Source: Candidatus Marinacidobacterium sp.
GTDB lineage: Bacteria; Acidobacteriota; Vicinamibacteria; Marinacidobacterales; Marinacidobacteraceae
Length of the DNA: 64,000 nucleotides
NCBI GenBank assembly: GCA_965202845.1
Contig: OZ241856.1
Span: 1,452,012-1,516,011, forward strand
Reading direction: 5' to 3'
The notes beneath the pieces are model-generated. The model did no database searches. It saw only the letters and a list, made by a program, of their open reading frames with translations, and was not told the DNA's origin. The position numbers were made by a program, and so were the translations under genes. Of the stretch, positions 4,937 through 54,252 are shown piece by piece; positions within the stretch are counted from its first letter, which is position 1; each line of letters opens with the position of its first letter.

Positions 4937-6043
4937 ATGTTCCGCACTTGGCGTCCCTCCCGCGCCGTCTGCGTTCTTTCCCTGCTCGCCGCGTGTGGCG
5001 GCGAGCCGGCGTCCGGACCGGCTGACCCGTATCAGGACATCGTCAGCGAAGCCCGGGAGACCGCCGGCAGTCCGGGACTCTCGGCGGCGGTCGCGGTGGA
5101 CGGCGCGATCCTCTGGACCGGGGCGTCCGGCCTCGCCGACGTCGAGAACCAGGTCCCGGCCACCGCCGAAAGCGTCTACCGGATCGCCTCCATCTCCAAA
5201 CCGATCGCCGCCACCGCGATCCTGCAGCTGGTGGAGCAGGGGCAGATTGGCTTGGACGATCCGATCCAGACCTGGTTTCCGGCCTATCCGGAGAAGGAGC
5301 GCCCGGTCTCCATCCGCCACCTGCTGACCCACACCTCCGGCATCCGGCACTACCGGCCGGGTGAGATGGACATGCGGGAGCACTTCGACACGGTGGAGGC
5401 GGGCATCGCCATCTTCGCCGACGATCCTCTGCTCTTCGAGCCGGGGACCGAGTACCGCTACTCCACCTACGCCTACAACATGCTCGCTGGAGTGGTGGAG
5501 ACCGCCTCCGGCCTGTCCTTCGACGAGTACATGCGCGCCTTCATCCGGGAACCGGCGGGGATGCGCGCCACCTATCTGGAGCACCAGGGGCCGCTCGTCC
5601 CCCACCGCGTGCGGCAGTACGTCAAGGCCGAGACTCCCGACCTGGTGGCGAACGCGCCGTTCGCCGACCTGTCGATCAAGTGGGCCGGCGGCGGCATGAT
5701 CGCGACCGCCCCCGACCTGGTCCGCTTCGCGCTGGCGCTGGACGCCGAGACCCTGCTCGAGGCCGAAACCCACGAGGAGATGGTCACCCCCTACAGACTC
5801 GCCGACGAAAGCCTCAGCGACTACGCGCTCGGCTGGCGCATCAGCGAGGACGAGGCCGGAACCTGGGTCGCCCACTCCGGCGGCGCGACCGGCGGCACCA
5901 CCCACCTGCTGCGGCTGCCGGAGCGGGGACTCGCGGTCGCCCTGACCGCGAACGTGCAAAACGGCGCCGGGCTGCCCGACGCGGCGCGCCGACTCGCCGA
6001 CCTCGCCCTCGCGGGCGTCCGCCCATCCATGCCGAACCCATGA
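4937..6043 (+). CDS. Serine hydrolase, beta-lactamase class C-like lipoprotein
   Basis: SISK (SxxK), LLTHTSG, YST and HSG motifs; lipobox LLAAC; RBS GGAGG before ATG 4937. Confidence 0.85.
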   Translation: MFRTWRPSRAVCVLSLLAACGGEPASGPADPYQDIVSEARETAGSPGLSAAVAVDGAILWTGASGLADVENQVPATAESVYRIASISKPIAATAILQLVEQGQIGLDDPIQTWFPAYPEKERPVSIRHLLTHTSGIRHYRPGEMDMREHFDTVEAGIAIFADDPLLFEPGTEYRYSTYAYNMLAGVVETASGLSFDEYMRAFIREPAGMRATYLEHQGPLVPHRVRQYVKAETPDLVANAPFADLSIKWAGGGMIATAPDLVRFALALDAETLLEAETHEEMVTPYRLADESLSDYALGWRISEDEAGTWVAHSGGATGGTTHLLRLPERGLAVALTANVQNGAGLPDAARRLADLALAGVRPSMPNP

Positions 6044-6843: not shown

Positions 6844-7107
6844 ATGTCAAGCATGGTGAAACTGACGATCCGCGTGGACCGGGGCGTGCTCCAGTGCGCC
6901 CGGGCACGGGCGCAGCGAGAGGGGACTTCGGTGCAGGAAGTGCTGCGGGAGCAGTTGCGCCGCTATGCGGCCGGCGACCTGCTGCCGAAAACGGCCCGTC
7001 CGTTCCAAGCGGAGTGGCTGGAAGAGGTCGCCAAGCGGGTGAAGGCCTCAGGCGCCAGCGTCCCCGTGTCCGCCATTCTGCAGGCCCGGGATGCCGACCG
7101 GCGCTGA
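6844..7107 (+). CDS. Second RHH antitoxin-like protein (orphan paralog)
   Basis: N-terminal ~48 aa strongly similar to 6090..6407 (GTSV..VLREQLRR.AAGDLLP); different C-terminus; no toxin follows. Confidence 0.7.
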   Translation: MSSMVKLTIRVDRGVLQCARARAQREGTSVQEVLREQLRRYAAGDLLPKTARPFQAEWLEEVAKRVKASGASVPVSAILQARDADRR

Positions 7108-7118
7108 AGGACTGCCGG

Positions 7119-7505
7119 CTACTCCCCCGACGCGCCGGGGTGGACGCGCTCGCCCTCGTACTCCCGCAACCCGCAAAACCCCACCACCTCGTATCCGTTG
7201 GCTGTCAGCAACTCCGCGGCACGCGCGGCTCTTCCGCCGCCCTGTCAAGCGGTGAGGATGGAGACGTCCTTCGGCAACTCGTCGAGCCGCCCCTCCAATT
7301 CGTCAATGGGGATGTGCACGAACCCCTCGATCGTCCCGTGCTCGGCCAGTTCCGCGGCGGTGCGGACGTCCAGCAGCAGCGCCCCGTCCGCCAGCGCGCC
7401 GTCGATGTCCGCGGCCTCCACCCGGGGCGTCGCCCCCTCCTCCCCTGCCCCGCAAGCCGAAAGGATCAAAAACAAAAACGCCGGAACAGCAAGTTTGCGA
7501 AGCAT
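7119..7505 (-). CDS. Rhodanese-domain lipoprotein, probable selenoprotein (Sec87, TGA at 7245-7247)
   Basis: LLDVRT..E...GTIEG..HIP rhodanese motif; readthrough gives ILTA-U-QGGGRAARAAELLTANGYEVVGFCGLREYEG to TAG 7119; lipobox LSAC. Confidence 0.85.
7214..7229 (-). promoter_or_regulatory. Candidate bacterial SECIS hairpin
   Basis: mRNA GCCGCGCGUGCCGCGG 15 nt after UGA; stem CCGCG/CGCGG, loop CGUGC; identical to 7621-7636. Confidence 0.7.
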
Positions 7506-7873
7506 CAGGAAACCTCCCCGCTTTCTTCGTCTCCGTTGAGCGGACGGTACTCCCGTTCGCCCTGGTAGTCCTTGAGGCCGGAGAAGCCGATCACGTCCCG
7601 GCCCGATCGTTCAAGGATAGCCGCGGCACGCGCGGCCCGGGGGCCGACCATTCAGGTGGTCAGGATCGGACGGTCGGCGGGCACTTCGTCCATGCGCTCC
7701 GCCAGCTCGCCGAGATGGATGTGGAGCGCCCCCGGGATCGTGCCCGCTTCGGCCAGCTCCTGGGCGGTGCGGACGTCCAGCAGAACCGCCCGCCGCTCCC
7801 GCAGCACCCGGTCGATCCGGTCGGCGGCGACGTGAGGGGCGCGGGTTCCGAGAACCCGTCCGACGAAACTCAT
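7505..7873 (-). CDS. Rhodanese-domain protein, probable selenoprotein (Sec74, TGA at 7652-7654)
   Basis: LLDVRT..GTIPGALHI; readthrough ILTT-U-MVGPRAARAAAILERSGRDVIGFSGLKDYQG to a TGA overlapping the next ATG (TGATG). Confidence 0.85.
7620..7636 (-). promoter_or_regulatory. Candidate bacterial SECIS hairpin
   Basis: GCCGCG-CGUGC-CGCGGC 15 nt after the in-frame UGA. Confidence 0.7.
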
Positions 7874-7913
7874 GCTCCGCCCATCGTATCAGAGCGAAGA
7901 CGGGAATCGCGCT

Positions 7914-8186
7914 TCAGACGGACAGGTTGCGGGCGGGAGCGCGGGGCGGTAGCACGTCCTTGAGCCGAAGCCCCTGCCCCTTCACGAACGCAAGCAGCCC
8001 CTTCTTGTCAATCGTCCGCAGGGCGCGCGCCGAAAGCCGCAGCCGCACCGAGCGCCCCAGCTCGGGCACCCAGACCGACTTCCACTGCAGGTTGGGAAGC
8101 TGCCGCCGCTTGTTGTGGTTGTTGGCGTGGCTGACGGAGTTCCCCGACAGGGGACGCTTGCCGGTCAGCGAGCAGGTACGAGCCAT
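7914..8186 (-). CDS. rpmB: 50S ribosomal protein L28
   Basis: MARTCSLTGKRPLSGNSVSHANNHNKRRQLPNLQ. Confidence 0.97.
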   Translation of the reverse strand: MARTCSLTGKRPLSGNSVSHANNHNKRRQLPNLQWKSVWVPELGRSVRLRLSARALRTIDKKGLLAFVKGQGLRLKDVLPPRAPARNLSV

Positions 8187-8200
8187 GACGATGGGGGATT

Positions 8201-10831
8201 CTATCGCATCGACGTCGGCGGCGGGGCCAGGTCCTCAACCGCCGCGCCGTTGAGCGCATTCAGGAACAGCTTGTAGGTGCCGCGCGGCTGCCCGCGGAAC
8301 TGGGGGCGGAAGCCGAACAGGATGACCTCGCCGGTTCCCCGGGGAACCCGGGCTATCGCGATCTTGCCGCCGATGGCGCTCTCCTCGCCGAGCGCCCAGC
8401 CGCTCATCAGCAGGTCGTCCTCCGCATAGCGCGCCACCACCTCCACATTGGGCGGCGGCTGCTCCACCGTGGTCTCGGCGCCGCCCTCGCGGGTACGGGG
8501 CAGCGTCACCAGCTCGAAGGCGCGGCTCCGCACGAACTGGGTGGCCGCCTCCTCCCGCATCCCGAAGGCGAGCGGGTGGCTTGTGTCCACCTCCGCGCGG
8601 ATCAGGGAGCCGGGGATGAAGAACCGGTCGGGCGGGAGATTCGCCGTCGCGTTGCGCAGCGGAAGGCCGAACTGGCTGATGACGAAGTCGGAGGCGTGGT
8701 CCAGCGCGATGAGGGTTCCGCCGTCCTCCACAAAACGGGCGAGCGCCAGCGTCCCCCGGAGGCCGATCCCGCCGGTGTACTCCTCGGGCATCGATCCCGG
8801 CGGATGCCCGTTCAGGATCGGACCGGGCGCCTGGTGCGGCAGGATGATCGCGTCCAGCCGGGACAGGTCGCCGTCGCGGATGTCGTCATCGTGAAGGCTC
8901 ACCAAGTCGTATTCATAGGTTTCCAGCAGCCAGCGGGTCCAGCCCTCGTCCATGCTCGCCACCCACGACTTGTAAAGCCCCACCCGCACCGGGGCAAGCG
9001 GGAGCAGCGGGATTTCCGGGGCTGATTCCAGTCCGATGACGTCCAGACCGAGTTCGGAGGCGATCCCCTCCACCGACGCCTCGGCGGCGTCCGAGCGGCG
9101 GACCACCAGGGTTCCCGCCTCGTGCTCCCGGTCCCCGTCCCGGAACGACTCCCGCGCCCAGGCCACTTCGGCGCCGGCGGCGAGCAGCCGGTTCTGCGCC
9201 AACACCGCGGCGTTCGGGCGATGCGAAATCGCGTATCCGAACCCGGGATCGCCCGAAACCGCTCCCGCCGGGGCGCGCGCCGGCCCCGACAGCGGCTCGA
9301 CCGGGACGTCGGGGACGCCGGGAACCCGCTCCACGTCCACGCCCATCTGCATCGGCAGGGTCCAGCCGGCAAGGTCGTAGGGCGGATCGGGCGGACCGTC
9401 GGGCGTGCGGCGCCGATCCGGGTAGGACTGGGCCTCCAGCAGGTCCTCGGCGTAGGCGCGAAACGCCTGGACGCCGGAAATCACATGGGAGCCGGCGCCG
9501 AATTCCCGGTCGCCTGCGACGAACGACTCGGTGGCGCGTCCGATTTCGATCCCGCCGTCCAGCAGGACGTTGAGAAGCGCCGCCGTCTCTCCCGGATCCC
9601 ACTGCTCCGCCGGAATCACCCAGCTGGCGTCGCTCTCCAGGATGGCGTCGCGCCCCATCCGCCAGATGTCGAACAGCCACTTTTCGCGGAGGTCGGCGGC
9701 GACGTCCAGCACTGCCATCGAGGCGGTGAGGGTGTAGCGGATCGGGTCGGAGAAATGCGACGGGCCGCCCGGCCACGGGTAGGGATGGAAGACGTCGGTG
9801 CCGTCGGTGGGCGCCGCCTGGCCGCGCCGGGGGTTGCCGACGAACTCCGGACGCTCCTCCGGGTCGTACATCCGGGGGGTCGCCGAGGCGTGCGAGGTTT
9901 CGGTCAAAAGCCCGATCATGTTGTGGAAGTAGGGCACGGTGCGCATCCCGCCGTTCCACCACATCGAATAGATCATGTCGGAGACCACGCCCGGCATCCG
10001 CTTCATGGCGAAGCGGTTCGCCATCGCCGAGCCGATCAGGTTGACCGAAGTGGTCACGCCCGGATGGATGCGCGGGTTCACCGGGTCGGCGAACGGCGGC
10101 AGGAAGATGCGCGCCCACGCCGGGCCGGTCTGGTGGTGGTTGTAGACGATCTGCGGAAACCACTCCCGGTACAACACCCGGCTCACCGCGGCGGTCTCCG
10201 GCATGTTGTTCATGAACCAGTCGCGGTTGTTGTCGTGCCCGACGTAGTGGTGGTAGAGCTCGGGCGGACGGGTGGTCTCCCACTGGGTCTCCCGGTTCCG
10301 GTGGTACCACGACGCCACGATGTCGAGGCCGTCCGGATTCATGCACGGCATGAGGATGAGCAGCACGTTCTCGCGGATCTTCCGCATCTCCGCCGATTCC
10401 TCGGTGGCGACCCGGTGCGCCAGTAGCGGCGCCATCTGCGCCGGGGCGACTTCGGTGGCGTGGAGGCCGGCGTCGATCCAGACAACCGCCTTGCCGTTCG
10501 CCGCCAGCCGCCGCGCCTCCTCCTCCCCGATCCGGGCGTTCGCCAGCCGGGAGGCGGTCTCCCGATGCTCGTCCAGCGCGGCCAGGTTCGACTCGGAGGA
10601 GAGGAAGAGGACGATCAGCGGCTTCCCCAGAACCGACCGGCCAATCTCACGCAGTTCCACCCGGGGGGATGCCTCCGCCAGCCGCCGGTAGTACTCGTGC
10701 AGATCGTCCCAGAGCGCCAGCTGGTAGTCGTCGCCCGGCTCGAAGCCGAGAACCTCCGCTGGCGTCGGAACGTCCTGGGCGACGGCGGGAGCGCCGAGCG
10801 CCAGCGCCAGAACGAATGCAACGAATTTCAT
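8201..10831 (-). CDS. Secreted M14-family zinc carboxypeptidase
   Basis: Signal peptide MKFVAF..AVAQ; GLHATE, NPDG and DNNRDW motifs; ATGA overlap with the ilvC stop. The ORF track start is over-extended. Confidence 0.85.
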
Positions 10832-45832: not shown

Positions 45833-46909
45833 TTGTCGCTCGAAGTCAGCATCCTCGCCCATCCGGACTCGGACGACGGCGACGGGCGCGTCGTCGAGGT
45901 CCGCAGCCTGGCGCAGCGGTTCGGGGACGAGGACCCGATCGAGGACTCCCGCCAGTTCGCCGCCGGCGAGCCGGACGCGATCCTCGCCTTTGTCGCCCAG
46001 CTGCTCGAGCGGCGCAAGGACGCGCTTCCCCTCGCCAGCCACCGGGAGTGCCGACGGTGCGGCGCGGCGCGGGACGCCGCCGGGGACGGACGCTCGCCCT
46101 TCGTCTGCGTCGACTGCCTTTCCGCAGCGGCCCGGTCCGTGCGACCGGCGCCCGAACCCGGAGACGGCGTCGAGGCGCTCTTTCTGGGGACCGGCGACGC
46201 CTTCGGATCAGGCGGACGCCGCGCCGCCTCCCTCTTCGTGCGGGCGCTGGGGGCGGAGCAGGGCGTCCTGCTGGACGCCGGCCCCGGTTGCCTCGCCGCG
46301 CTGCATGCGGAGGGCCTCGGCGGCGAGGACGTGGGCGCGCTGATCCTGAGCCATTTCCACGGTGACCACTTCGGCGGCGCGACCTTCCTCGAACTGGATC
46401 GGCGCGTGCGGAATCGGAAGGCGGAGCCTCTTCCCGCCTTGACTCCTCCGGGCGGCGCCGACCGCATCCGGGACCTGCGCAAGGCGCTCTACCCCGATTT
46501 CCGTTCGGAGTCCGGCTTCGACGTCCGGGAGCTGCTGCCGGGCGAGACCGCCCCCCTGCCCTCCCGTACCGGCGGCGGCTGGGCGACCGCGTTCGCCGCC
46601 GACCACCAGCCGCGCGCCTGGGCCTTCGGCTGGCGGGTTCGGCTGGGCGGACGCACCCTGGTGTACTCCGGCGACACCGCGTGGAATCCACGCATCCTCC
46701 GGGAGTCGGACGGGGCGGACCTCCTGATCCACGAATGCACGTCCGGCGCCGCTCCCCTTCCCGGCCACACCAGCCACGTCGATCTCCAGCGGGCGGCGCC
46801 GGACATCACCGCGCGCCGGGCGCTGCTGGTCCACGCGGGACCGGAGACGCTGGCGCTATCCGATCCGGTGTTTCCGCTCGCCCACGACGGCTTGCGCGTC
46901 GTGATCTGA
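45833..46909 (+). CDS. MBL-fold metallohydrolase (RNase Z-like) with N-terminal CxxC..CxxC extension
   Basis: LGTGDAFGSGGR, SHFHGDH, YSGDT, HECT. Confidence 0.8.
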   Translation: MSLEVSILAHPDSDDGDGRVVEVRSLAQRFGDEDPIEDSRQFAAGEPDAILAFVAQLLERRKDALPLASHRECRRCGAARDAAGDGRSPFVCVDCLSAAARSVRPAPEPGDGVEALFLGTGDAFGSGGRRAASLFVRALGAEQGVLLDAGPGCLAALHAEGLGGEDVGALILSHFHGDHFGGATFLELDRRVRNRKAEPLPALTPPGGADRIRDLRKALYPDFRSESGFDVRELLPGETAPLPSRTGGGWATAFAADHQPRAWAFGWRVRLGGRTLVYSGDTAWNPRILRESDGADLLIHECTSGAAPLPGHTSHVDLQRAAPDITARRALLVHAGPETLALSDPVFPLAHDGLRVVI

Positions 46910-46917
46910 AGCGAAGC

Positions 46918-47187
46918 TCAGTCGTCCTTCGTCCGGGATCCGGAAGCCTCGCCGCCGTCCGAGCCGCCGGTGAGGCTCCGCATGGACTTGCGGAAGTTCC
47001 GGATGCCCTCCCCGAGTCCGGCGCCGAGCTGGGGCAGCTTGCCGGCGCCGAACACCAGAATCACGATGAACAGGGTGATGAGCAGTTCCGTGGTTCCCAG
47101 CCCGCCAATCAACAGGAGGGGAACCGCCGGGGGGATCGCCAGAGGAATCACTTGCGGCGCGAGGAGTGCGGAGATCATGCCCCCCAT
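46918..47187 (-). CDS. tatA: Twin-arginine translocase subunit TatA
   Basis: GLGTTELL...FGAGKLPQLG..LGEGIRNFRKS; start uncertain (47187 or 47178). Confidence 0.92.
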   Translation of the reverse strand: MGGMISALLAPQVIPLAIPPAVPLLLIGGLGTTELLITLFIVILVFGAGKLPQLGAGLGEGIRNFRKSMRSLTGGSDGGEASGSRTKDD

Positions 47188-47290
47188 TCTACCCCCTTCC
47201 CCGAAAATCCGGATGGCGCGGCTTCCCCTGCGCTTTCGGGAAACCGGCGCCGGCAAACCCCGCCGGAAACGAGTGGTACCCTGATTCGCG

Positions 47291-48100
47291 GTGCTTTTCT
47301 CCTCCCGCCCGGTCCGTCTCGGCGTCTTCGGGCTGCTCCTGGCCGGCTTGGTCGCTCTGGTCGCGGCGGCGCTCGGCGCCTGGCGAACCGACGAAATCAG
47401 CAATGGGGCCGCCGCGAGAGTGCCGACGATTTCCGTCAACGTGCGGAGCGAACCGCGGCAGCGGGAAGAGGACGCCACCCCGGTTGGCCGACTGGTCTCC
47501 GCTTCGTCGCATGCCGACGCCGAAACTGTCCGCGCGCTTCTCGCGCAAGGCGCGAGTCCGAACACCCAGGACATCAATGGCGAGCTGCCGCTCCATCGCG
47601 CCGCGGGCGCCGGAAGCCTCGAGGTCGTGGAGTTGCTGCTGGACGCTGGCGCGGACGTGGACACGGCCTGTGGACTCGGCTGGTTCCCGCTTGCCCATGC
47701 GGCCGATTCGGGTTCTCCCGAGGTAACTGCACGACTGCTGGAGGCCGGCGCTTCCCCCCGGGACTCCACATCGGGAGAATCGCCGATTTTCCAAGTGGTA
47801 TACGGCGCGATGTCCTCCAGGCACGGACTATCGGACGCCACCAGCGCGACCGAAGAACAACGAGTGGAGGTCCTGCAAACGCTCCTTGAAGCCGGAGCGA
47901 GCACATCCGGGATGGACGTTCTGCTGTTCCATGCGATTTTCATGACCCAAAGCGCGGACATCCTGTCGGTCCTGCTGGGGCACGGCGCTCGGCTTGACCT
48001 TGCATCGAGAGAGGGGCGCGCGCTCCTGAACCTTCCTGGCGCCCTCGGGGAACGCCTCCGGGAAGCGCATGAGAATTCCGAAGCGGCATCCACGCCGTGA
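47291..48100 (+). CDS. Membrane-anchored or secreted ankyrin-repeat protein
   Basis: N-terminal hydrophobic segment; G.LPLHRAA..G..EVVELLLDAGADV and PLAHAA..G...LLEAGA repeats. Confidence 0.85.
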   Translation: MLFSSRPVRLGVFGLLLAGLVALVAAALGAWRTDEISNGAAARVPTISVNVRSEPRQREEDATPVGRLVSASSHADAETVRALLAQGASPNTQDINGELPLHRAAGAGSLEVVELLLDAGADVDTACGLGWFPLAHAADSGSPEVTARLLEAGASPRDSTSGESPIFQVVYGAMSSRHGLSDATSATEEQRVEVLQTLLEAGASTSGMDVLLFHAIFMTQSADILSVLLGHGARLDLASREGRALLNLPGALGERLREAHENSEAASTP

Positions 48101-48180
48101 ATACCCTGTTTTTGTTCCGTCCCATCCCATCCATAGCCCCCTTGAAGGGAGGGCCAACAGACCCAAAGGAGATTTGTGAC

Positions 48181-48339
48181 ATGACGAGGAAGTTCGGAAA
48201 GCTCTCCATCGCCGTCGCTGTTGTCGGCGCGATTCTCATTCCCAGCGCGTTCGCTCTGGCGCAGGATTGCCACTACCATGTGGTCTGCGTGGTCAAACCG
48301 CATGGTTCGATTTGCGTTGACCTCTGGCTTTGCTTCTGA
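48181..48339 (+). CDS. 52-aa secreted four-cysteine peptide precursor
   Basis: AAAGGAG SD 9 nt before ATG; signal peptide ending AFALA; core QDCHYHVVCVVKPHGSICVDLWLCF. Confidence 0.75.
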   Translation: MTRKFGKLSIAVAVVGAILIPSAFALAQDCHYHVVCVVKPHGSICVDLWLCF

Positions 48340-48363
48340 TTCTTTGACCGCTGACTGAGCGGC

Positions 48364-50748
48364 ATGGACGGGATCGTCCAGAGGATCCGTAGCCGCATTC
48401 CGTTTCCCGTTCGGCTCGCGTGGAAATCGCTCGCCGGGCGGCCGGGGAACACTCTCGCGGTATTGCTGGCGCTGTCGTGCGCCCTGGGCGCCCACGGCGC
48501 GGTGGCCGCCCTGTGGTCCACCGTGATGCGCCCGGACTTGCCCTGGTCGGAGCCGGAGCGTCTGATCCGCCTGGAGGCGGTCGGCGCGGCTCCCCTGCGT
48601 CCGGGAAGCGAGCACCTCTTCGGCGCCGAAGTCGAAGCGCTCCAGGAGGAAGCGGAGTCCTTCGAGTGGGTGGGGCACTATGTGCGGGCGGACATGCCCA
48701 TGGGCGAACGCGGCGAGCGCCTGATCCGAACCGCCGTCGTGGATCCCGGCCTCCTGAAGACGCTTGGCGTCCCGCCCGCCTTCGGAAGACTGTTCCGGGA
48801 CGACGACCACACGCCGAGCGGAACTGGGGCGTCTTTCGACCTGTTCCGCCCCGATTACGGGGAACCAGCCGCGATCCTCGCGCACCGGCTCGCGTCGCGC
48901 CTGGCGCCGGACCCCGAGGCGATGCAGGACGCGGACATCGTCCTCAACGGGACCCGGTTCCGCGTCGTCGGGATCATGCCCGATTCGTTCTTCTTCCCCG
49001 ACCGGGAGACCGAAGCCTGGCTCCCGAAGGCCGACCGGCCGCTCCCGCCGCCCACCCGCTCCCGCAGCAACGCTCCCACCTTCGGACGCCTGCGGATCGG
49101 AGTTTCCCCGGCGGCAGCCGGGGAGGAAGCCACCGGCATCGTCCGCCGCATGCATCTGCGCTCGGAGGATCAGCGGGTGCAGGCGACCCCCATCCGGGAA
49201 ATCGGGATCCGCCCGATTCGAACGACCGCCGTCGCGCTGCGCCTGGGCGCGTGGCTGCTGGTGTTCGCCGCCGCCGGGAGCGTGGTGGGGCTGGGCCTCT
49301 CGCGCCGCGCCGCCGAAGCGCGAAACGCCGCAGTACGCCGATGGGTGGGCGCCACGCCGGCAGACGAAGCCCGGATCGCCCTCGTCCGTTGGGGGCTGCT
49401 CGCGGCGGGCGCCGGAGGAGGCGCATGGATCGTCGGTTCGCTGGCGACGCCTTTCCTGCGTCCGGTCGTCGGCTTGCACGGTCCGGAGTTGGCGCTCGCC
49501 TGGCCCGAAACCGGGGAGGTAGCGCTCGGAACCCTGCTCGCCGCCGGGATCGCCGAGTTCCTGGGCGCCCTGCGTGGACCGGGGCGCTCCGGGCGGCAGA
49601 CGGGGACGCTGGCGTTTCTCGGCGGAGGCGTCGCGGTAGCCACCGTCACCCTGATCATCACCGTCGCCCTGGGGGGCGCGGCGTGGCGACTTCTCGAAGG
49701 AAGCGGAAGCTACCCCGGGAGACGCCTCGCGCAACTGACGGTCCGCTTCGACGGCGCCGCCCTTGCCGTACCGGAGCAGACCCGCCTGCTGGACCGGCTC
49801 GTCCGGCGCATCGAGTCGCTCCCCGAAGTCGAAGCGGCCGGGTGGGCCGACGAGATGCCGGACGCGATGGGCGGCCGGAGCATCAGCTACGACCCCCGCG
49901 CCGAAAAGTCCGCTTCGCAGATCCGGTCCCGCTCCATCGGACCGGGCTTTCTGAACGTCCTCGGCATTCCGGTGGTGGCCGGACGCGGCACCCTTCCCAC
50001 CGACGATCCGCCCGCCGAACCGGTCGTCCTGGTGGATCGGACGCTCGCCGCCGACCTGGAGATCGGCGATCTGGCGCGGCTGGGGTCGATTTCCCCCCAA
50101 GTGGTGGGCGTGGTTCCCGACATCGGCGCGTTTCCCTCCACCCGCCCGGTTCCCACCGTGTACCAGCCCTTCGCGACGGCGAGCGCCGCCTTTGCATTCC
50201 TTCCGCGCACCCGGGCGGTGGTCGCCGTCCGGTTCCGGGACCGGGTGGACGCGGCCGCCCTCAGCCAGCTTGCGGCGCTGCCGGCCGAAACCGACCCGCT
50301 GCTGAGCGCGCTCCGAGTGGAATCGGTGCTGGAGCGACGACGGCGTTCGCTGGGCGCGCCCCTGCTCGGCGCGATGGTCATCGGGGTGTTCGCCGCCTGC
50401 GGGATTCTCCTCGCCCTCGCCGGAGCGATCGGTCAGGTGGCCGACCTCGCCCGGCGATCGGTTCGCCCGGTGGCCATCCGCCAGGCGCTCGGCGCGCCTC
50501 CCGACCTCGTGGTGTGGGAACTGACCCGCCGGGCGCTGTTCGCGACGGTCCTCGGCGTGCTGACCGGCGGGTTCGGCGGCTGGATCGTGACGCGGTGGAT
50601 CGCGGAGCGGGTCGTCTGGGCGCCGGAGGCCGGGCCGGCAGCCTACTTCGGCCCGATGGCGCTGCTGACGCTGCTCGTCGGCGTCGCCAGCCTGGTCGCC
50701 GGGTATCGCGCCTCCCGCGCCGAACCCTGGCCGCGGCTTACGGTCTGA
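48364..50748 (+). CDS. Duplicated MacB/FtsX-type ABC permease (ADOP-like), no cognate ATPase in window
   Basis: PERL..L, LGV.P.FGR.F, VVGIMP..F.FP, LGIPVVAGR, AIRQALGA; two-fold internal repeat. Confidence 0.85.
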   Translation: MDGIVQRIRSRIPFPVRLAWKSLAGRPGNTLAVLLALSCALGAHGAVAALWSTVMRPDLPWSEPERLIRLEAVGAAPLRPGSEHLFGAEVEALQEEAESFEWVGHYVRADMPMGERGERLIRTAVVDPGLLKTLGVPPAFGRLFRDDDHTPSGTGASFDLFRPDYGEPAAILAHRLASRLAPDPEAMQDADIVLNGTRFRVVGIMPDSFFFPDRETEAWLPKADRPLPPPTRSRSNAPTFGRLRIGVSPAAAGEEATGIVRRMHLRSEDQRVQATPIREIGIRPIRTTAVALRLGAWLLVFAAAGSVVGLGLSRRAAEARNAAVRRWVGATPADEARIALVRWGLLAAGAGGGAWIVGSLATPFLRPVVGLHGPELALAWPETGEVALGTLLAAGIAEFLGALRGPGRSGRQTGTLAFLGGGVAVATVTLIITVALGGAAWRLLEGSGSYPGRRLAQLTVRFDGAALAVPEQTRLLDRLVRRIESLPEVEAAGWADEMPDAMGGRSISYDPRAEKSASQIRSRSIGPGFLNVLGIPVVAGRGTLPTDDPPAEPVVLVDRTLAADLEIGDLARLGSISPQVVGVVPDIGAFPSTRPVPTVYQPFATASAAFAFLPRTRAVVAVRFRDRVDAAALSQLAALPAETDPLLSALRVESVLERRRRSLGAPLLGAMVIGVFAACGILLALAGAIGQVADLARRSVRPVAIRQALGAPPDLVVWELTRRALFATVLGVLTGGFGGWIVTRWIAERVVWAPEAGPAAYFGPMALLTLLVGVASLVAGYRASRAEPWPRLTV

Positions 50749-51109
50749 CCGCGCTCCGGGTCCGGGTCCAATCGAGCGGATTCGGCCGGTACCGCGGCTC
50801 GGCCCACGGCGTCTCCGGGCCCCCCTCCCCTTCGCCTTCGCTCTCCGGCCCCTGCGTCGCCTCCAGGTAGTCCAGCACCTTCTCCCGACTCTCGTCGTCC
50901 AGCGGCTCCATCCCCATCCCCACCATGACGTCGAGCATCTCGTCCCAGGTCTCCCGGTCGAACTCCGCCGACGTGATGTAGCTGTCCTCGTGGCAGGCCA
51001 GGCACTGCTCCCGGACCAGCTCCACGTGCGGGCCGTCCTTCAGGTTGTCGGTCTGCCCAAGCGCCGGGGCGGCGAAGGCCAGCAGCAGCGCTGCGCGCAA
51101 AACTCTCAT
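50738..51109 (-). CDS. Periplasmic monoheme cytochrome c, partner of the sulfite oxidase
   Basis: Signal peptide, CLACH, W...M motif; directly downstream of the molybdoenzyme. Confidence 0.82.
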   Translation of the reverse strand: MRVLRAALLLAFAAPALGQTDNLKDGPHVELVREQCLACHEDSYITSAEFDRETWDEMLDVMVGMGMEPLDDESREKVLDYLEATQGPESEGEGEGGPETPWAEPRYRPNPLDWTRTRSAVRP

Positions 51110-51111
51110 GT

Positions 51112-52344
51112 TCAGATCACCGTGACCGCGATGCGGTGCATCGCGTTGTTGAGATACCCCCGGGGGTTCCAGCCCGGAGTCACCATCGGTTGCATGCGAC
51201 CGGAATCATCGGTCGCCCGCGCCCACACTTCGTAGTGGCCGGGAATGTCGAAAACGAGACGCCCCTCCCAACGCTGCCAGGCGAACCGGTTCTCCGGCGC
51301 CTCGAGTCGGCAGTCGACCCAGGTCGCGCCGAAGTCGGCGCTCAGATGCATCGCCGCCACCCGCCCGGCGCCCGACCAGGCATGCCCGCGCAGCGCGAGC
51401 GACCCCACCACCGAGCGCCGCACGCCCGACGCCGGTGCGGTGATGATCGACTTCACCGGCATCGTCTCGATGATCCGCATGTCTGCTTCCGGAACTTCGG
51501 TTCCGGGCGCCACCGGCTCGCGCGGCATCCGGTAGGAATGACCGGTCATCTTCGGGCCGTCGTGCACCCGGTCCCGGATCCAAAGACGCCGCAGCCACTT
51601 GCCGCTGGCGGACGCCGGATAGCCGGGCGCGACCAGCCGCAGCGGAAATCCGTGGATCGGCGGCAGCGGCTCGCCATTCATTTCGAACGCCAGGATCGTG
51701 TCCGGATCGAGCGCCTTCGAGACCGGAATCCCCCGGGAGATCGGAACGGCGTCCGCATCGCCGCCGCCCAGCGGCGGGTCCTCCCCGTACCAGGCCACGT
51801 ACACCGCGCTCGAACGCAAGCCGGCGGACTCGAGGACATCGCGCAGCCGCACCCCGGCGTACCTGGCGCAGCCCACCGCTCCCAGCCACCAGGGGTTGCC
51901 CGCCGCCGCCGGACGAAACGCCGCCCGGCCGTTGCCGGCGCACTCCAGCACCAGCGACAGCGAGACGGTCTCGAACGCGGTCGCCAGATCATCGAACGAC
52001 AGTTCCAGTTCGGCCTCGACTTCGCCGTCCACCTTCAGGGTCCAGCCATCCAGGTCCCCGGCGAGCGCCCGCTCCGGGATGCCCCCGTTGTTCCGCACGA
52101 AGTGCCGGTCGTTGGGGGTGTAGCGCGGGTCGAGGTCGGTGACCCAGGTTTCGGCGTTCACCGGGCGGTCGCTCAGCACCCGGAGATCGGTCTTCCCGGC
52201 GATCGCCGCCGACGGGGGGCGCTGCCGCCCCTCTCCGGCTGCGGAGGCGGCGATCCCGGGCAGGAGCGCGCTGGCGCCGAGGAACCGGCGACGGGAGAGC
52301 GGAGAGGCGGGCACTGCGCGGATCGTACCGGATTGGGAGGTCAT
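51112..52344 (-). CDS. Tat-exported sulfite oxidase-family molybdoenzyme (SorA/SorT-like)
   Basis: SRRRFL Tat motif, HFVRNN, LECAGNGR, MNGEPLPPIHGFPLR, KWL, WNPRGY.NN. Confidence 0.9.
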   Translation of the reverse strand: MTSQSGTIRAVPASPLSRRRFLGASALLPGIAASAAGEGRQRPPSAAIAGKTDLRVLSDRPVNAETWVTDLDPRYTPNDRHFVRNNGGIPERALAGDLDGWTLKVDGEVEAELELSFDDLATAFETVSLSLVLECAGNGRAAFRPAAAGNPWWLGAVGCARYAGVRLRDVLESAGLRSSAVYVAWYGEDPPLGGGDADAVPISRGIPVSKALDPDTILAFEMNGEPLPPIHGFPLRLVAPGYPASASGKWLRRLWIRDRVHDGPKMTGHSYRMPREPVAPGTEVPEADMRIIETMPVKSIITAPASGVRRSVVGSLALRGHAWSGAGRVAAMHLSADFGATWVDCRLEAPENRFAWQRWEGRLVFDIPGHYEVWARATDDSGRMQPMVTPGWNPRGYLNNAMHRIAVTVI

Positions 52345-52368
52345 TCCGTCTCGTTCAGGAAGTCGCCG
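52343..52368. repeat. 26-bp direct repeat, copy 1
   Basis: ATTCCGTCTCGTTCAGGAAGTCGCCG, identical to 54278-54303. Confidence 0.95.
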
Positions 52369-52987
52369 GGCGGCGCGCGGAAGCCACGATCCATTCCGTG
52401 AGCAAATGCACGGTCGTGGACGGGTTCCCGCCCGGGCGTCCCGCCTCCTCCCTGCGTCGCGCCGCCCGGGAAGCCCTTCGGACGGCCGCGGGATAGCGGC
52501 GCGCGATGGCTTCCCGATCCTCGAAACGCTTGTTGCTCCTGACGCCGTATGGAAAGTGCAACGTTTCCAGCATGCGCTGGCATTCCCGACTCCCGAGGGG
52601 CGCGTTCTGTTCCCGGTAGTGGAGAATCCCCCAGAGTTCGAAACACGGATTCGAAATGGCCGTGCGGATACCCTTGCGGCGCGCCAGATCCCTCGCCTCG
52701 TCGAATCTCGAATGGCTATCCCGGTCAAACAGCGCCCAGAAGGAATCCCCGGCGGCGAGCCGATCCCGCTTCGATTTCTCCGATTCCTCGATCGCCCGTT
52801 CCACCACGGCTCGGGGATCGCCTCCAACCGGAATCGGAACCACTCTCGCTGCGGATCGATCTCCATGGATGTCGCTGAATACCTTGAGATACCCCGGTTC
52901 GGTCACCACCCCTTCGGTAGCGACCACGATGCGCGAGGCCGGCTGGCGGATGGCCGGGCGTCGCGCGATGCGCCTGACTCGACTCAT
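52355..52987 (-). CDS. rloB: RloB-family protein (AbiLii-like)
   Basis: TEG..TEP.Y, WALFDRD, SNPCFELW..LHY, NPST.V. Confidence 0.9.
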   Translation of the reverse strand: MSRVRRIARRPAIRQPASRIVVATEGVVTEPGYLKVFSDIHGDRSAARVVPIPVGGDPRAVVERAIEESEKSKRDRLAAGDSFWALFDRDSHSRFDEARDLARRKGIRTAISNPCFELWGILHYREQNAPLGSRECQRMLETLHFPYGVRSNKRFEDREAIARRYPAAVRRASRAARRREEAGRPGGNPSTTVHLLTEWIVASARRPATS

Positions 52988-54252
52988 GGCGCTCGCAAAT
53001 CGATGAAAAAATCATCCCCCGCCGGAACGCCTCCAAACCGTCCCAGGCGGTACGCCTTCTCGATGTCATCGCGGGAGCGCAATTGGAAATCCATCAATGG
53101 CGTGAACCGGGACTCTCCCTCGCCAGTCTTGTCGATCAGCCAGATTGCATCCGAATCCAGGACGCCACTTCCGAGCAGCGCGACATCATGCGTGGAAAAA
53201 ACAAGTTGCGCGCCGCGCGGGTTGGATTCCTTCCTTGCGAAAAGCGAGACGAACGCCCGCGCCAGATTCGGATGAAGGCTGGTATCCAGTTCGTCGATCA
53301 CGAGCAGCGACCCGCGTTCGAGCGCTTCCAGCGCCGGAACGAGCAAGCAGACAAGAACCTGTGTTCCCCTGCTTTCCGTGGCGTATCCGAAAGCCGCCGC
53401 GCGATCCCCGGCCGCCGCATGCATGAAACGAAGCCGCTTCCGGCGCCGGATAGCCTCCACCAAGGAAGTCTCGTCGCTATCCTTGACTTCCTCATCTTCC
53501 ACATGCATGCCGATGATTCCCACATCGGCCTGGCGCAGGATGGCGAGAAGACGTTCCCGGCGCTCATGTTCGGCCAAGCGCTTCGCAACATCATGGGCAT
53601 GCATGCCATTCATGGCCTCCGAACTCAAGACAGTCGTCCATTTCCCGGCGAAATGCCGGTACAAATCCGCCAGCAATGGGTGATTGTTCTGGGCGGCGGC
53701 GGAAAGAAACAGACTGTTCGGACGAGTCCAATTGACGATCGCGCGGTTCGATCCCCGCAGATGGCTGCCGAATTGCACCTGAATCCTTCCGTCCCCGGTC
53801 GCGCGCTCGAAAAGCAATTGGGTGCTTTGTCGTTTCTTTCGCACGATGCGAAACAACCATTCGCGTTGAAACTGCGCGTCCACGTACTCGAACCCATATT
53901 CGTACACGGTTCCGGCCGTCCCTTCTCCGGCGACGAACGTGCAATCGAACCGCGTCGGTTTCGCGCTGGACGCATCGTCCAGCCGAAACGGGTCCCGGGG
54001 AATGGGATCGGCGGCGCCCAGGGACGTGTGGGACCGAACAATCAATCTCCGAAACGCATCCATCGCATCGATGAGATTCGATTTTCCCGCCGCATTGCCG
54101 CCGTAGAGCGCGACAACCGGAACCGCACTCTCCCCGAGCGTCGGCGCCGGGATCGACTGCCCGCTTCGCCGGACGCGTCTGGACGCGCTCAAGTGAAGCT
54201 CCTGGTAATCGCGAATGGAGCGGTGGTTGGCGACTCCGAAACGCAGCAGCAT
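52984..54252 (-). CDS. RloA/AbiLi-like ABC-type ATPase (AAA_21)
   Basis: F.VANHRSIRD, YGGNAAGKSNL, ESRGT, IDELDTSLHP, FSTHD, Y..GRFGGVP; ATGA-coupled to rloB. Confidence 0.9.
   Translation of the reverse strand: MLLRFGVANHRSIRDYQELHLSASRRVRRSGQSIPAPTLGESAVPVVALYGGNAAGKSNLIDAMDAFRRLIVRSHTSLGAADPIPRDPFRLDDASSAKPTRFDCTFVAGEGTAGTVYEYGFEYVDAQFQREWLFRIVRKKRQSTQLLFERATGDGRIQVQFGSHLRGSNRAIVNWTRPNSLFLSAAAQNNHPLLADLYRHFAGKWTTVLSSEAMNGMHAHDVAKRLAEHERRERLLAILRQADVGIIGMHVEDEEVKDSDETSLVEAIRRRKRLRFMHAAAGDRAAAFGYATESRGTQVLVCLLVPALEALERGSLLVIDELDTSLHPNLARAFVSLFARKESNPRGAQLVFSTHDVALLGSGVLDSDAIWLIDKTGEGESRFTPLMDFQLRSRDDIEKAYRLGRFGGVPAGDDFFIDLRAP

Follow-up and report, generated by a model that had tools for sequence, protein, structure and literature searches.

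The general scheme in which a peptide with disulfide bridges is exported by Sec and then handled by a MacB-type pump is already known. According to the passages of PMC5985334 that deal with these peptides, STII, a heat-stable enterotoxin of E. coli, is exported by Sec, oxidised by DsbA and expelled by MacAB-TolC, and SDP, a peptide with one disulfide, is countered by YknWXYZ. More generally, the part of PMC12646458 devoted to type VII ATP-binding cassette (ABC) systems presents their function as being defined by the partner protein. As for ankyrin-repeat proteins, the periplasmic protein Bd3460 is described as protecting Bdellovibrio from its own secreted enzymes (PMC4686830, in its account of this protein), and ankyrin repeats are listed among immunity domains under the name Imm-ank (PMC3482391, in its list of such domains). 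Here, we analysed a module of three genes found in a 64,000-nucleotide (nt) stretch of the genome of Candidatus Marinacidobacterium sp., hereafter the window, which encode an ankyrin-repeat protein, a small cysteine-containing peptide with a putative signal sequence and a duplicated permease of the MacB/FtsX type (Table 1). We propose, as a reading whose chances we judge to be evenly balanced, that a MacAB-like pump exports or neutralises a Sec-delivered hairpin peptide, with the ankyrin protein as its periplasmic partner. The three genes would constitute the distal part of this type VII ABC envelope pump, dedicated to small unmodified peptides exported by Sec. As compared to the known scheme, the novelty lies in the peptide family, in the addition of an ankyrin protein, in a fused ADOP-like permease as the presumed core of the pump, and in the dispersion of the operon in this genus.

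Similarly to the STII/MacAB-TolC system (PMC5985334), the module combines a small, presumably Sec-exported peptide with two predicted disulfides and a putative pump of the MacB fold, with HlyD-type adaptors encoded in the operon of relatives. It differs from it by its permease, a fused pseudo-dimer devoid of an ATPase domain, by its two distinct adaptors and its additional ankyrin protein, and by its peptide, which is predicted to be all-beta and is unrelated in sequence to STII; furthermore, its parts are dispersed in the window's genome and its role in transport is presumptive. Like YbbAP-TesA (PMC12646458), the module associates a fused, multi-helix permease of the FtsX type with a presumed ATPase encoded apart from it and with a linked periplasmic partner, which is an ankyrin-repeat protein and not a hydrolase. 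Like Bd3460 and Imm-ank (PMC4686830, PMC3482391), it places a putatively exported ankyrin protein beside a presumably secreted, potentially self-harmful product, and its extra ankyrin copies form arrays as in polyimmunity loci. Unlike these two, its ankyrin protein would be tethered by an N-terminal helix and, in 42 of 47 loci, is encoded near a permease; the partner that it putatively binds would be a peptide of 25-43 residues, not an enzyme as in the case of Bd3460.

Using a combination of methods (six-frame, profile and metagenome searches, structure prediction and comparison of gene neighbourhoods), we computed directly the reality and conservation of the genes, the predicted fold of the peptide, the linkage, the operon context and the occurrence of ATPase, adaptor and oxidase genes. 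In what follows, G000 is the window's genome, the other G numbers are related genomes, the L numbers are sequence stretches (loci) and the C numbers are contigs; the window's own taxonomic family (f1) comprises 28 genomes.

A peptide family beside ankyrin and permease genes

The precursor encoded by the middle gene starts with MTRKFGK, a K/R-rich N-terminus, which is followed by a hydrophobic stretch, the AFALA motif and the core QDCHYHVVCVVKPHGSICVDLWLCF. This layout points to a putative Sec-type signal peptide, as judged from the sequence features, the conserved cleavage region (Ala at −1 and Gln at +1) and the helix that AlphaFold2 (AF2) predicts over residues 5-27 of the precursor. The reading of the precursor as a lipoprotein was rejected, in that the residues preceding the first cysteine (Q-D, Q-H, D-D and similar) are not a lipobox. 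The peptide belongs to a family of approximately 30 distinct sequences with no earlier family model. Neither Pfam nor NCBIfam contains a matching model, a sequence search of the PDB with its profile returned no meaningful match to a solved chain, and the ESM Atlas gave no match at 0.9 or above. The identity to the window's precursor is as low as 18-42% and, in an alignment of 25 members, the four cysteines are the only invariant columns of the core; Ala at −1 is near-invariant and Gln at +1 occurs in 18 of the 25.

The six-frame search of the relatives returned weak but patterned matches, and the strong matches of the alignment-based search were confined to family f1, in which 11 of the 28 genomes have an intact copy. 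The order contains two further families: of 8 genomes of the first none matched, and of 19 of the second two did, both matches being weak and located in the signal-peptide part, inside long open reading frames (ORFs). Elsewhere in the phylum, eight of 400 evenly sampled genomes matched at E ≤ 0.001 and none resembled a family member: these matches cover the signal-peptide part or, in two that were translated, show no pattern, and none has an adjoining ankyrin gene. In large protein libraries, an index of 5.8 billion proteins contains seven clusters of the family, and the family profile matched 26 of 1.84 billion representatives at E ≤ 0.001, namely, upon inspection, 22 small signal-plus-cysteine peptides, two long proteins and two sequences without the pattern. 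A metagenome scan with the GGG-tailed subgroup of peptides found nothing.

These data bear on the simplest alternative, namely that the small ORF arose by chance in an intergenic spacer, as could be suspected from its shortness and from its G+C content (56.6%, below the 70% of the window). The low G+C content fits the Ile/Phe/Val/Lys-rich composition of the peptide, and GGAGG-type sites precede the homologous starts in other genomes. The signal peptide, the Shine-Dalgarno site and the cysteine pattern are conserved across genera and in metagenomes, so that the probability of a chance ORF is, in our view, close to nil. The initial annotation, made from the letters of the window, was right in taking the small ORF for a real gene: its Shine-Dalgarno site, signal/core boundary and cysteine pattern recur in relatives and in the large protein libraries.

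Every strong peptide match has an ankyrin orthologue within approximately 1.5 kb, and a permease too where the contig continues. The flanking genes differ between loci (PALP genes, amidohydrolase/GH109, a TolC-like gene), and the gene order is peptide, ankyrin, permease in G004 and G020. In the congener G001, the backbone formed by MoeA, NAD-synthase-like, MBL and TatA genes is kept (68-82% identity) and the module is not next to it, being located 1.9 Mb away between PALP genes. In a metagenome search started from the ankyrin protein, the two best of 24 loci are the only full-length orthologues, and both have the permease and an intervening peptide with a four-residue loop. A pattern scan of 185,579 species genomes, a collection that may leave out records of the window's genome or of a very near one, gave 80 ankyrin loci; two of them have a permease or a peptide, both from the metagenome-assembled genome of G009, and the others encode generic ankyrin proteins. 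The organisms carrying the module appear to be known from assemblies only. The occurrence of homologous small ORFs beside related permeases had been set beforehand as a test of the system; such ORFs were found in the window's family, with the same cysteine pattern. The proposed linkage of the three genes stood in part: it is kept across genomes with differing flanks, but the peptide accompanies just 17 of the 47 ankyrin loci examined.

Concerning the fold, AF2 (run with the family alignment) predicts that the window's peptide forms two strands, 30-39 and 42-51 (block pLDDT, predicted local distance difference test, 91-92), with C30/C51 and C36/C45 in register across them. For the six-cysteine form of the family, the predicted strands span 34-49 and 54-69 (16 residues each; pLDDT 90-94), with three cysteine pairs in register. 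The sum of the positions of each pair is constant (81; 103 in the six-cysteine form), which indicates that the paired cysteines face each other across the strands. We also tabulated the cysteine spacings of 32 sequences. The window's type, 5-8-5, is found in 13 of them, its short-loop (5-4-5) and long-loop (5-10-5) variants in four and one, respectively, and the six-cysteine spacings 3-7-8-7-3 and 3-7-8-8-3 in three and one; there are also five forms with adjacent Cys-Cys (6-7 cysteines), two asymmetric sequences (6-8/9-3) and three singletons (5-9-6, 5-8-4 and 3-1-10-5). Thus, the arms are equal (5/5) in 18 of the 22 four-cysteine sequences, with a loop of 4, 8 or 10 residues, and the longer six-cysteine spacing is mirror-symmetric. 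Equal arms despite a variable loop, together with mirror symmetry, make up the pattern expected of a hairpin ladder. The peptide is therefore best described, at the level of prediction, as a two-disulfide antiparallel β-hairpin ladder; this part of the initial annotation is backed by the AF2 models of both forms and by the variation of loops and arms. The two asymmetric sequences are exceptions, so that a perfect ladder does not hold for the whole family. They are encoded in L218 (G020 C132) at 5655-5915 (−) and 6897-7496 (−), on either side of one ankyrin gene; their spacings are 6-9-3 and 6-8-3, with a cysteine first after the predicted cleavage site, a misfit to a perfect ladder, and the L218 permease is convergent and just 28% identical.

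Protegrin, tachyplesin and gomesin are host-defence peptides that form disulfide-laddered β-hairpins and are strongly cationic. The window's peptide would share with them the two-disulfide antiparallel hairpin, a size of ~18-25 residues and a possible N-terminal pyroglutamate. Unlike them, the peptides of the module are bacterial, presumably exported by Sec, unrelated in sequence, occur as six- and seven-cysteine variants, and have anionic and hydrophobic cores: the 25 predicted cores, 25-43 residues long, bear a net charge of −11 to +1 (median −3) and are approximately 60% hydrophobic or Cys. The likeness to these three peptides, as initially drawn, is thus retained for the predicted architecture and lost for the charge. 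A literature search on Sec-dependent β-hairpin bacteriocins returned general reviews and nothing on such peptides.

The possibility that the hairpin is a metal-binding periplasmic peptide had been raised from the three His of the window's core, and some six-cysteine members possess HH or WHE motifs. His residues occur in 14 of the 25 cores and are absent from the other 11, and there is no conserved His column, which indicates that metal binding is not a family trait; in addition, the cysteines are in register for disulfides. We therefore regard this explanation as very improbable.

Among the Pfam-annotated neighbours of the window and of L009, L010, L011, L064, L219 and L228, we found no tailoring enzyme of ribosomally synthesised and post-translationally modified peptides (RiPPs), which confirms for the annotated flanks of these seven loci what had been noted for the window. 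The modifications expected are generic disulfide formation and possibly pyroglutamate, nothing further. Without a tailoring enzyme as a landmark, the peptide family would probably escape genome mining centred on RiPPs.

A duplicated permease and the putative parts of its pump

The permease matches PF12704 (MacB_PCD, a large periplasmic domain set between helices 1 and 2; 81.6 bits) over two stretches, as a duplicated unit, and PF02687 (FtsX, a membrane domain of four helices; 32.3 bits versus a cut-off of 25.5 bits) over residues 675-785. With these two domains, it would belong to the type VII ABC (MacB/FtsX) superfamily; a sequence search of the PDB with it returned no meaningful match to a solved chain. 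Its nearest described relatives are the ADOP permeases (TIGR03434), which we take to be duplicated permeases without an adjacent ABC ATPase gene, and of which no functional study was found in the literature. It resembles them by its duplicated MacB_PCD/FtsX architecture, its end-to-end alignment with the model (16-789), its Acidobacteriota lineage and its isolation in the window, where no ABC ATPase gene occurs beside it (35-63 kb). It departs from them by its score, 281 bits as compared to a cut-off of 622.3 bits (278.5 bits in the six-frame search, in which another gene of G000 reached 668.5 bits and is a true ADOP), and by the fact that the module's clade is not orphan in the relatives. On these scores, the permease is ADOP-like and does not fall within the curated ADOP cut-off, so that its initial assignment to ADOP is not maintained. 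Its description as an orphan permease holds for the window, with no adjacent ATPase and a duplicated architecture, but not for several relatives of the same clade, whose operon includes an ATPase and adaptors.

This operon, found in the clade of the peptides with a four-residue loop (loop-4), comprises genes for an HlyD-type adaptor, an ABC ATPase (227 aa), a second HlyD-type adaptor, the ankyrin protein, the peptide and the permease. The order is the same in L064 and L219 (G023 C71), partly so in L063, and again in L228 (G022) without the peptide gene. In L122, L223 and L224, the ATPase gene lies directly upstream of the ankyrin-permease pair and, of the 38 related stretches searched by tblastn, 6 have an adjacent orthologue of this ATPase. 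The models best matched by the operon ATPase are DarD (245 bits), MacB (231 bits), LolD, the lactococcin-972 exporter, FtsE, YbbA and DevA, all scores being below the equivalog cut-offs; these are named type VII ABC systems or, by their NCBIfam name, peptide/glycolipid exporters. The adaptors of the operon match DarC weakly. The operon is thus like the darobactin (DarCDE) and lactococcin 972 exporters in its ATPase. Darobactin is a modified RiPP, unlike the module's peptide, the annotated loci of which have no tailoring enzyme, and to our knowledge neither exporter has an ankyrin component. A TolC-like gene (PF02321, E 9e-45) occurs in L011 (G004 C98) at 7682-9244 (+), between two hairpin-peptide genes of the opposite strand.

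In G000 itself, an orthologue of the operon ATPase (79.6% identity, the next best reaching 48.9%) is encoded beside an adaptor of 54.9% identity at C1:1441899-1443867, 57 kb upstream of the module, with no permease adjoining. This ATPase-adaptor pair (C1:1441899-1444029; L230 5885-8030) has a GCS2/CBS gene downstream and a phosphodiesterase gene upstream. The second adaptor (59%) is located ~800 kb away beside a TRAP transporter, an arrangement also found in G001. From the coexistence in G000 of a permease-less ATPase-adaptor pair and an ATPase-less module, the parts of which form one operon in relatives, we infer that they work together.

For the closure of the disulfides, the window's genome encodes a VKOR domain and a DsbA-like thioredoxin domain (Thioredoxin_4) in one 657-aa open frame (C1:509107-510261), and a second DsbA-like protein; DsbB was not found in this genome. 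The VKOR fusion is likely the organism's envelope disulfide oxidase and, together with the second DsbA-like protein, it makes disulfide formation in the periplasm plausible.

By analogy with STII, we propose that Sec carries the 52-aa precursor across the inner membrane, and that signal peptidase cuts it after AFALA to leave an N-terminal Gln, which may cyclise. The VKOR-thioredoxin fusion would then close the C1-C4 and C2-C3 bridges, thereby generating a rigid, hydrophobic and mildly anionic β-hairpin. The membrane-tethered ankyrin protein would be the partner of the pump, most likely binding the hairpin as a substrate receptor or for self-protection. Removal of the peptide from the periplasm or the outer leaflet, and its expulsion, would then be the task of the fused-dimer MacB/FtsX permease, with the MacB/LolD-type ATPase supplying energy in trans and the HlyD-type adaptors as a cap. 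Outside the cell, the peptide would probably be bacteriocin-like and act between strains. The putative steps of this scheme are the cleavage, the oxidation, the ankyrin-peptide binding, the transport and the activity of the peptide.

Another possible destination of an exported hairpin is that of a secreted pheromone or quorum signal, for which the pump would be a mere exporter. A peptide that is small, stable, exported (as predicted) and variable between strains would suit such a role, and in both L219 and L228 the permease gene is followed, on its own strand, by a sigma-70-family gene. However, this sigma gene is generic (RpoS/RpoD-like, below cut-offs) and absent from the window's locus, the annotated flanks contain no sensor kinase or receptor gene, and the extra ankyrin genes and broken peptide genes described below fit conflict better; a signal is thus, in our opinion, improbable. 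The sigma gene (342 aa; L219 873-1901 (−) and L228 1151-2179 (−)) may be a neighbour or a regulator.

Duplicated permeases of the ADOP type are numerous in Acidobacteriota. The module provides one ADOP-like clade with a candidate cargo or ligand (the peptide), a periplasmic partner (the ankyrin protein) and a set of ATPase and adaptors, and its ankyrin protein would be a new entry among the partner proteins that define type VII ABC machines.

The ankyrin-permease core and the probable loss of peptide genes

The ankyrin protein begins with basic residues and one hydrophobic helix, which precede the Ank domain, and this N-terminal anchor is kept in 14 of 14 aligned orthologues. By the positive-inside rule, the ankyrin repeats would face the periplasm. 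The ankyrin-profile search revealed full-length anchored paralogues in most of the 28 genomes of the family, often several in each, and 47 loci were examined. In 42 of them an ADOP-like gene lies within ~2 kb of the ankyrin gene, and three of the other five end at the end of a contig. A hairpin-peptide gene or its remnant occurs in 17 loci; in the other 30, no peptide was detected by profile or cysteine pattern within ~1.5 to 6 kb. Of these 30 peptide-less loci, 26 keep the adjoining ADOP-like gene (degraded in two cases), and in many the ankyrin gene is separated from that of the permease by less than 150 nt. The detection of peptides is not perfectly sensitive, as suggested by a possible divergent five-cysteine ORF in a 580-nt gap of G011 (L216). 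The ankyrin-permease pair is the conserved core of the module.

Defective peptide genes, which represent 7 of 21 in these genomes, occur mostly beside intact ankyrin genes. They comprise the G001 pepB gene, which is frameshifted within a run of G (its homologue P0006 is intact); G007a, the start codon of which reads ATAG; G007b (L031 1486-1650 (+)), in which a TGG codon aligned with the conserved Trp of close homologues has become TGA; G009a (L005 (C176) ~1501-1626 (−)), with an in-frame TGA exactly at the third cysteine and a lost start codon; a truncated peptide duplicate in G014; a one-nucleotide insertion in G023 C77; and a peptide remnant at 341 kb in G001. Selenocysteine was considered for the in-frame TGAs and discarded: in G009a the start codon is missing as well and the neighbouring permease gene carries an internal deletion, and the TGA of G007b stands at a Trp. 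We read these TGAs, from their context, as probable decay. In a tree of 29 ankyrin rows (fragments and matches shorter than 130 residues being excluded), peptide-bearing loci occur in all major clades, which requires at least four gains or losses, and one stable clade of seven rows from several genomes is peptide-less. This pattern suggests that the peptide gene was lost several times while its ankyrin and permease neighbours were kept.

These findings are those on which the strongest rival explanation draws, namely that the ankyrin-permease pair is a self-standing extractor or resistance device, of which the peptide is not the export cargo; the peptide could then be a kin-made toxin that is merely neutralised, or a small ligand or subunit, located in the periplasm, by which the machine is modulated. 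The 30 loci without a detectable peptide (26 with the ADOP-like gene), the peptide genes that decay beside intact ankyrin genes and the stable seven-member peptide-less clade all agree with it, and MacB relatives of the BceAB and YknWXYZ types are described as serving resistance, not secretion, in the corresponding passages of PMC5985334 and PMC12646458. Three observations argue in the opposite direction. First, every major ankyrin clade includes loci with a peptide gene. Second, the peptide gene is flanked by those of the ankyrin protein and the permease within an operon that also encodes the adaptors, which is the arrangement of a tripartite exporter. Third, divergence that spares nothing but the cysteines is not what one expects of a structural subunit. 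We regard this explanation as unlikely, and the export or neutralisation of the hairpin by a MacAB-like pump remains our preferred reading.

The mode of evolution of the module is relevant to the role of the peptide. Between genera, the ankyrin protein and the permease are 30-46% identical, versus 56-62% for MoeA and PBP2 encoded in the same window; within the genus, the values are 55-57% and 41% for the module proteins, versus 69-72% for MoeA and PBP2. G001 possesses an array of three intact ankyrin genes, an ankyrin fragment, two peptide genes and the remnant of a second permease, and G014 a duplicated ankyrin gene with a peptide remnant. Two loop-4 peptide genes show zero synonymous and six non-synonymous codon differences over 49 codons; their flanks show 49 synonymous and 43 non-synonymous differences (ankyrin, 29 and 29; 5′ parts of the permease, 20 and 14). 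Together, the non-synonymous excess, the arrays and the decaying peptide genes form a pattern that resembles toxin-immunity loci. A more daring proposal is that the peptides constitute a new class of ribosomal, unmodified and anionic bacteriocins of Acidobacteriota, disulfide-ladder hairpins under diversifying selection, with a cognate membrane-tethered periplasmic ankyrin protein for immunity or as a receptor and with secretion by a new kind of MacAB-like pump based on a fused permease of the ADOP type; we hold this to be possible but doubtful. If the bacteriocin reading were true, the module would provide the first cargo and the first partner protein for ADOP-like permeases, and the peptides could be weapons used between strains, in a phylum from which few peptide products are known. 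With their 25-43 residues, rigid cross-links and natural variety of loop and ladder lengths, they would also be attractive scaffolds. Elsewhere in G001 (C1:549545-556389), open frames of 1055 and 1144 aa have many successive matches to ankyrin-repeat profiles, which suggests giant multi-ankyrin proteins.

Several points weigh against the pump and its presumed bacteriocin. First, the peptide-less ankyrin-permease cassettes outnumber those with a peptide (30 versus 17 of the 47), which implies that the pump needs no peptide encoded in cis, and the pair nearest to that of the window outside the genus (G012; 45.5/45.9% identity, ~100-nt gap) has none. Second, the ATPase and adaptor genes of G000 are dispersed, their pairing with the permease being deduced from orthology alone, and a gene for an outer-membrane factor adjoins the module in G004 alone. 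Third, the anionic hydrophobic cores are unlike the known membrane-active hairpins, so that an antimicrobial role is conjectural. Fourth, the signal in the ratio of non-synonymous to synonymous changes rests on very few substitutions among related sequences, and some of the broken peptide genes may be assembly errors.

Layout of the locus and neighbouring genes

The three co-oriented ORFs initially reported are all present in the window (Table 1). The ankyrin and peptide genes are separated by 80 nt, and the peptide and permease genes by 24 nt. Over 46800-51200, the search for promoter-like (sigma-70) sites found none, and that for terminator-like sites a single one, at 48967-48984 within the permease gene, a count below that of shuffled sequence. 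In view of the short gaps and of the lack of promoter and terminator between the genes, the three genes of the module are probably co-transcribed. Around the module, the search for signs of mobile elements gave no convincing flanking repeats and no Rfam matches.

Table 1. Coordinates of the module, its parts and its neighbours in the window
Feature	Position	Strand	Description
TatA gene	46918-47190	-	Upstream flank, strand opposite to the module
Ankyrin gene (gene 1)	47291-48100	+	269 aa; Pfam Ank families, E 1e-11 to 2e-18 (best Ank_2, E 2e-18)
Shine-Dalgarno-like AAGGAG	48166-48171	+	9 nt 5′ of the ATG of the peptide gene; read from the sequence
Peptide gene (gene 2)	48181-48339	+	52-aa precursor; Cys at precursor positions 30/36/45/51
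Putative signal peptide of the precursor	48181-48261	+	27 residues, ending in AFALA; sequence features, Ala at −1, AF2 helix
Predicted mature core and stop codon	48262-48339	+	25 aa, QDC..CF; C-x5-C-x8-C-x5-C
Permease gene (gene 3)	48364-50748	+	794 aa; duplicated MacB/FtsX type, ADOP-like, without an ATPase domain of its own
SorB-like cytochrome c gene	50738-51109	-	Downstream flank, part of a convergent SorB/SorA-like pair
SorA-like molybdoenzyme ORF	51112-52866	-	Listed length 584 aa; family matches start near residue 220
RloB-like and AAA_21 ATPase genes	52355-54252	-	RloB-like gene (PF13707, E 2.5e-33) directly after AAA_21 gene (PF13304, E 5e-29)

Downstream of the module, the family match of the SorA-like ORF starts late and just behind a twin-arginine-like motif, SRRRFLGASALL, so that the true start is probably ~200 codons further downstream. 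The long form of this ORF, as listed, overlaps the RloB-like gene. The RloB-like and AAA_21 genes look like a two-gene anti-phage or abortive-infection module, judging from their domains, and share a variable region with the peptide module.

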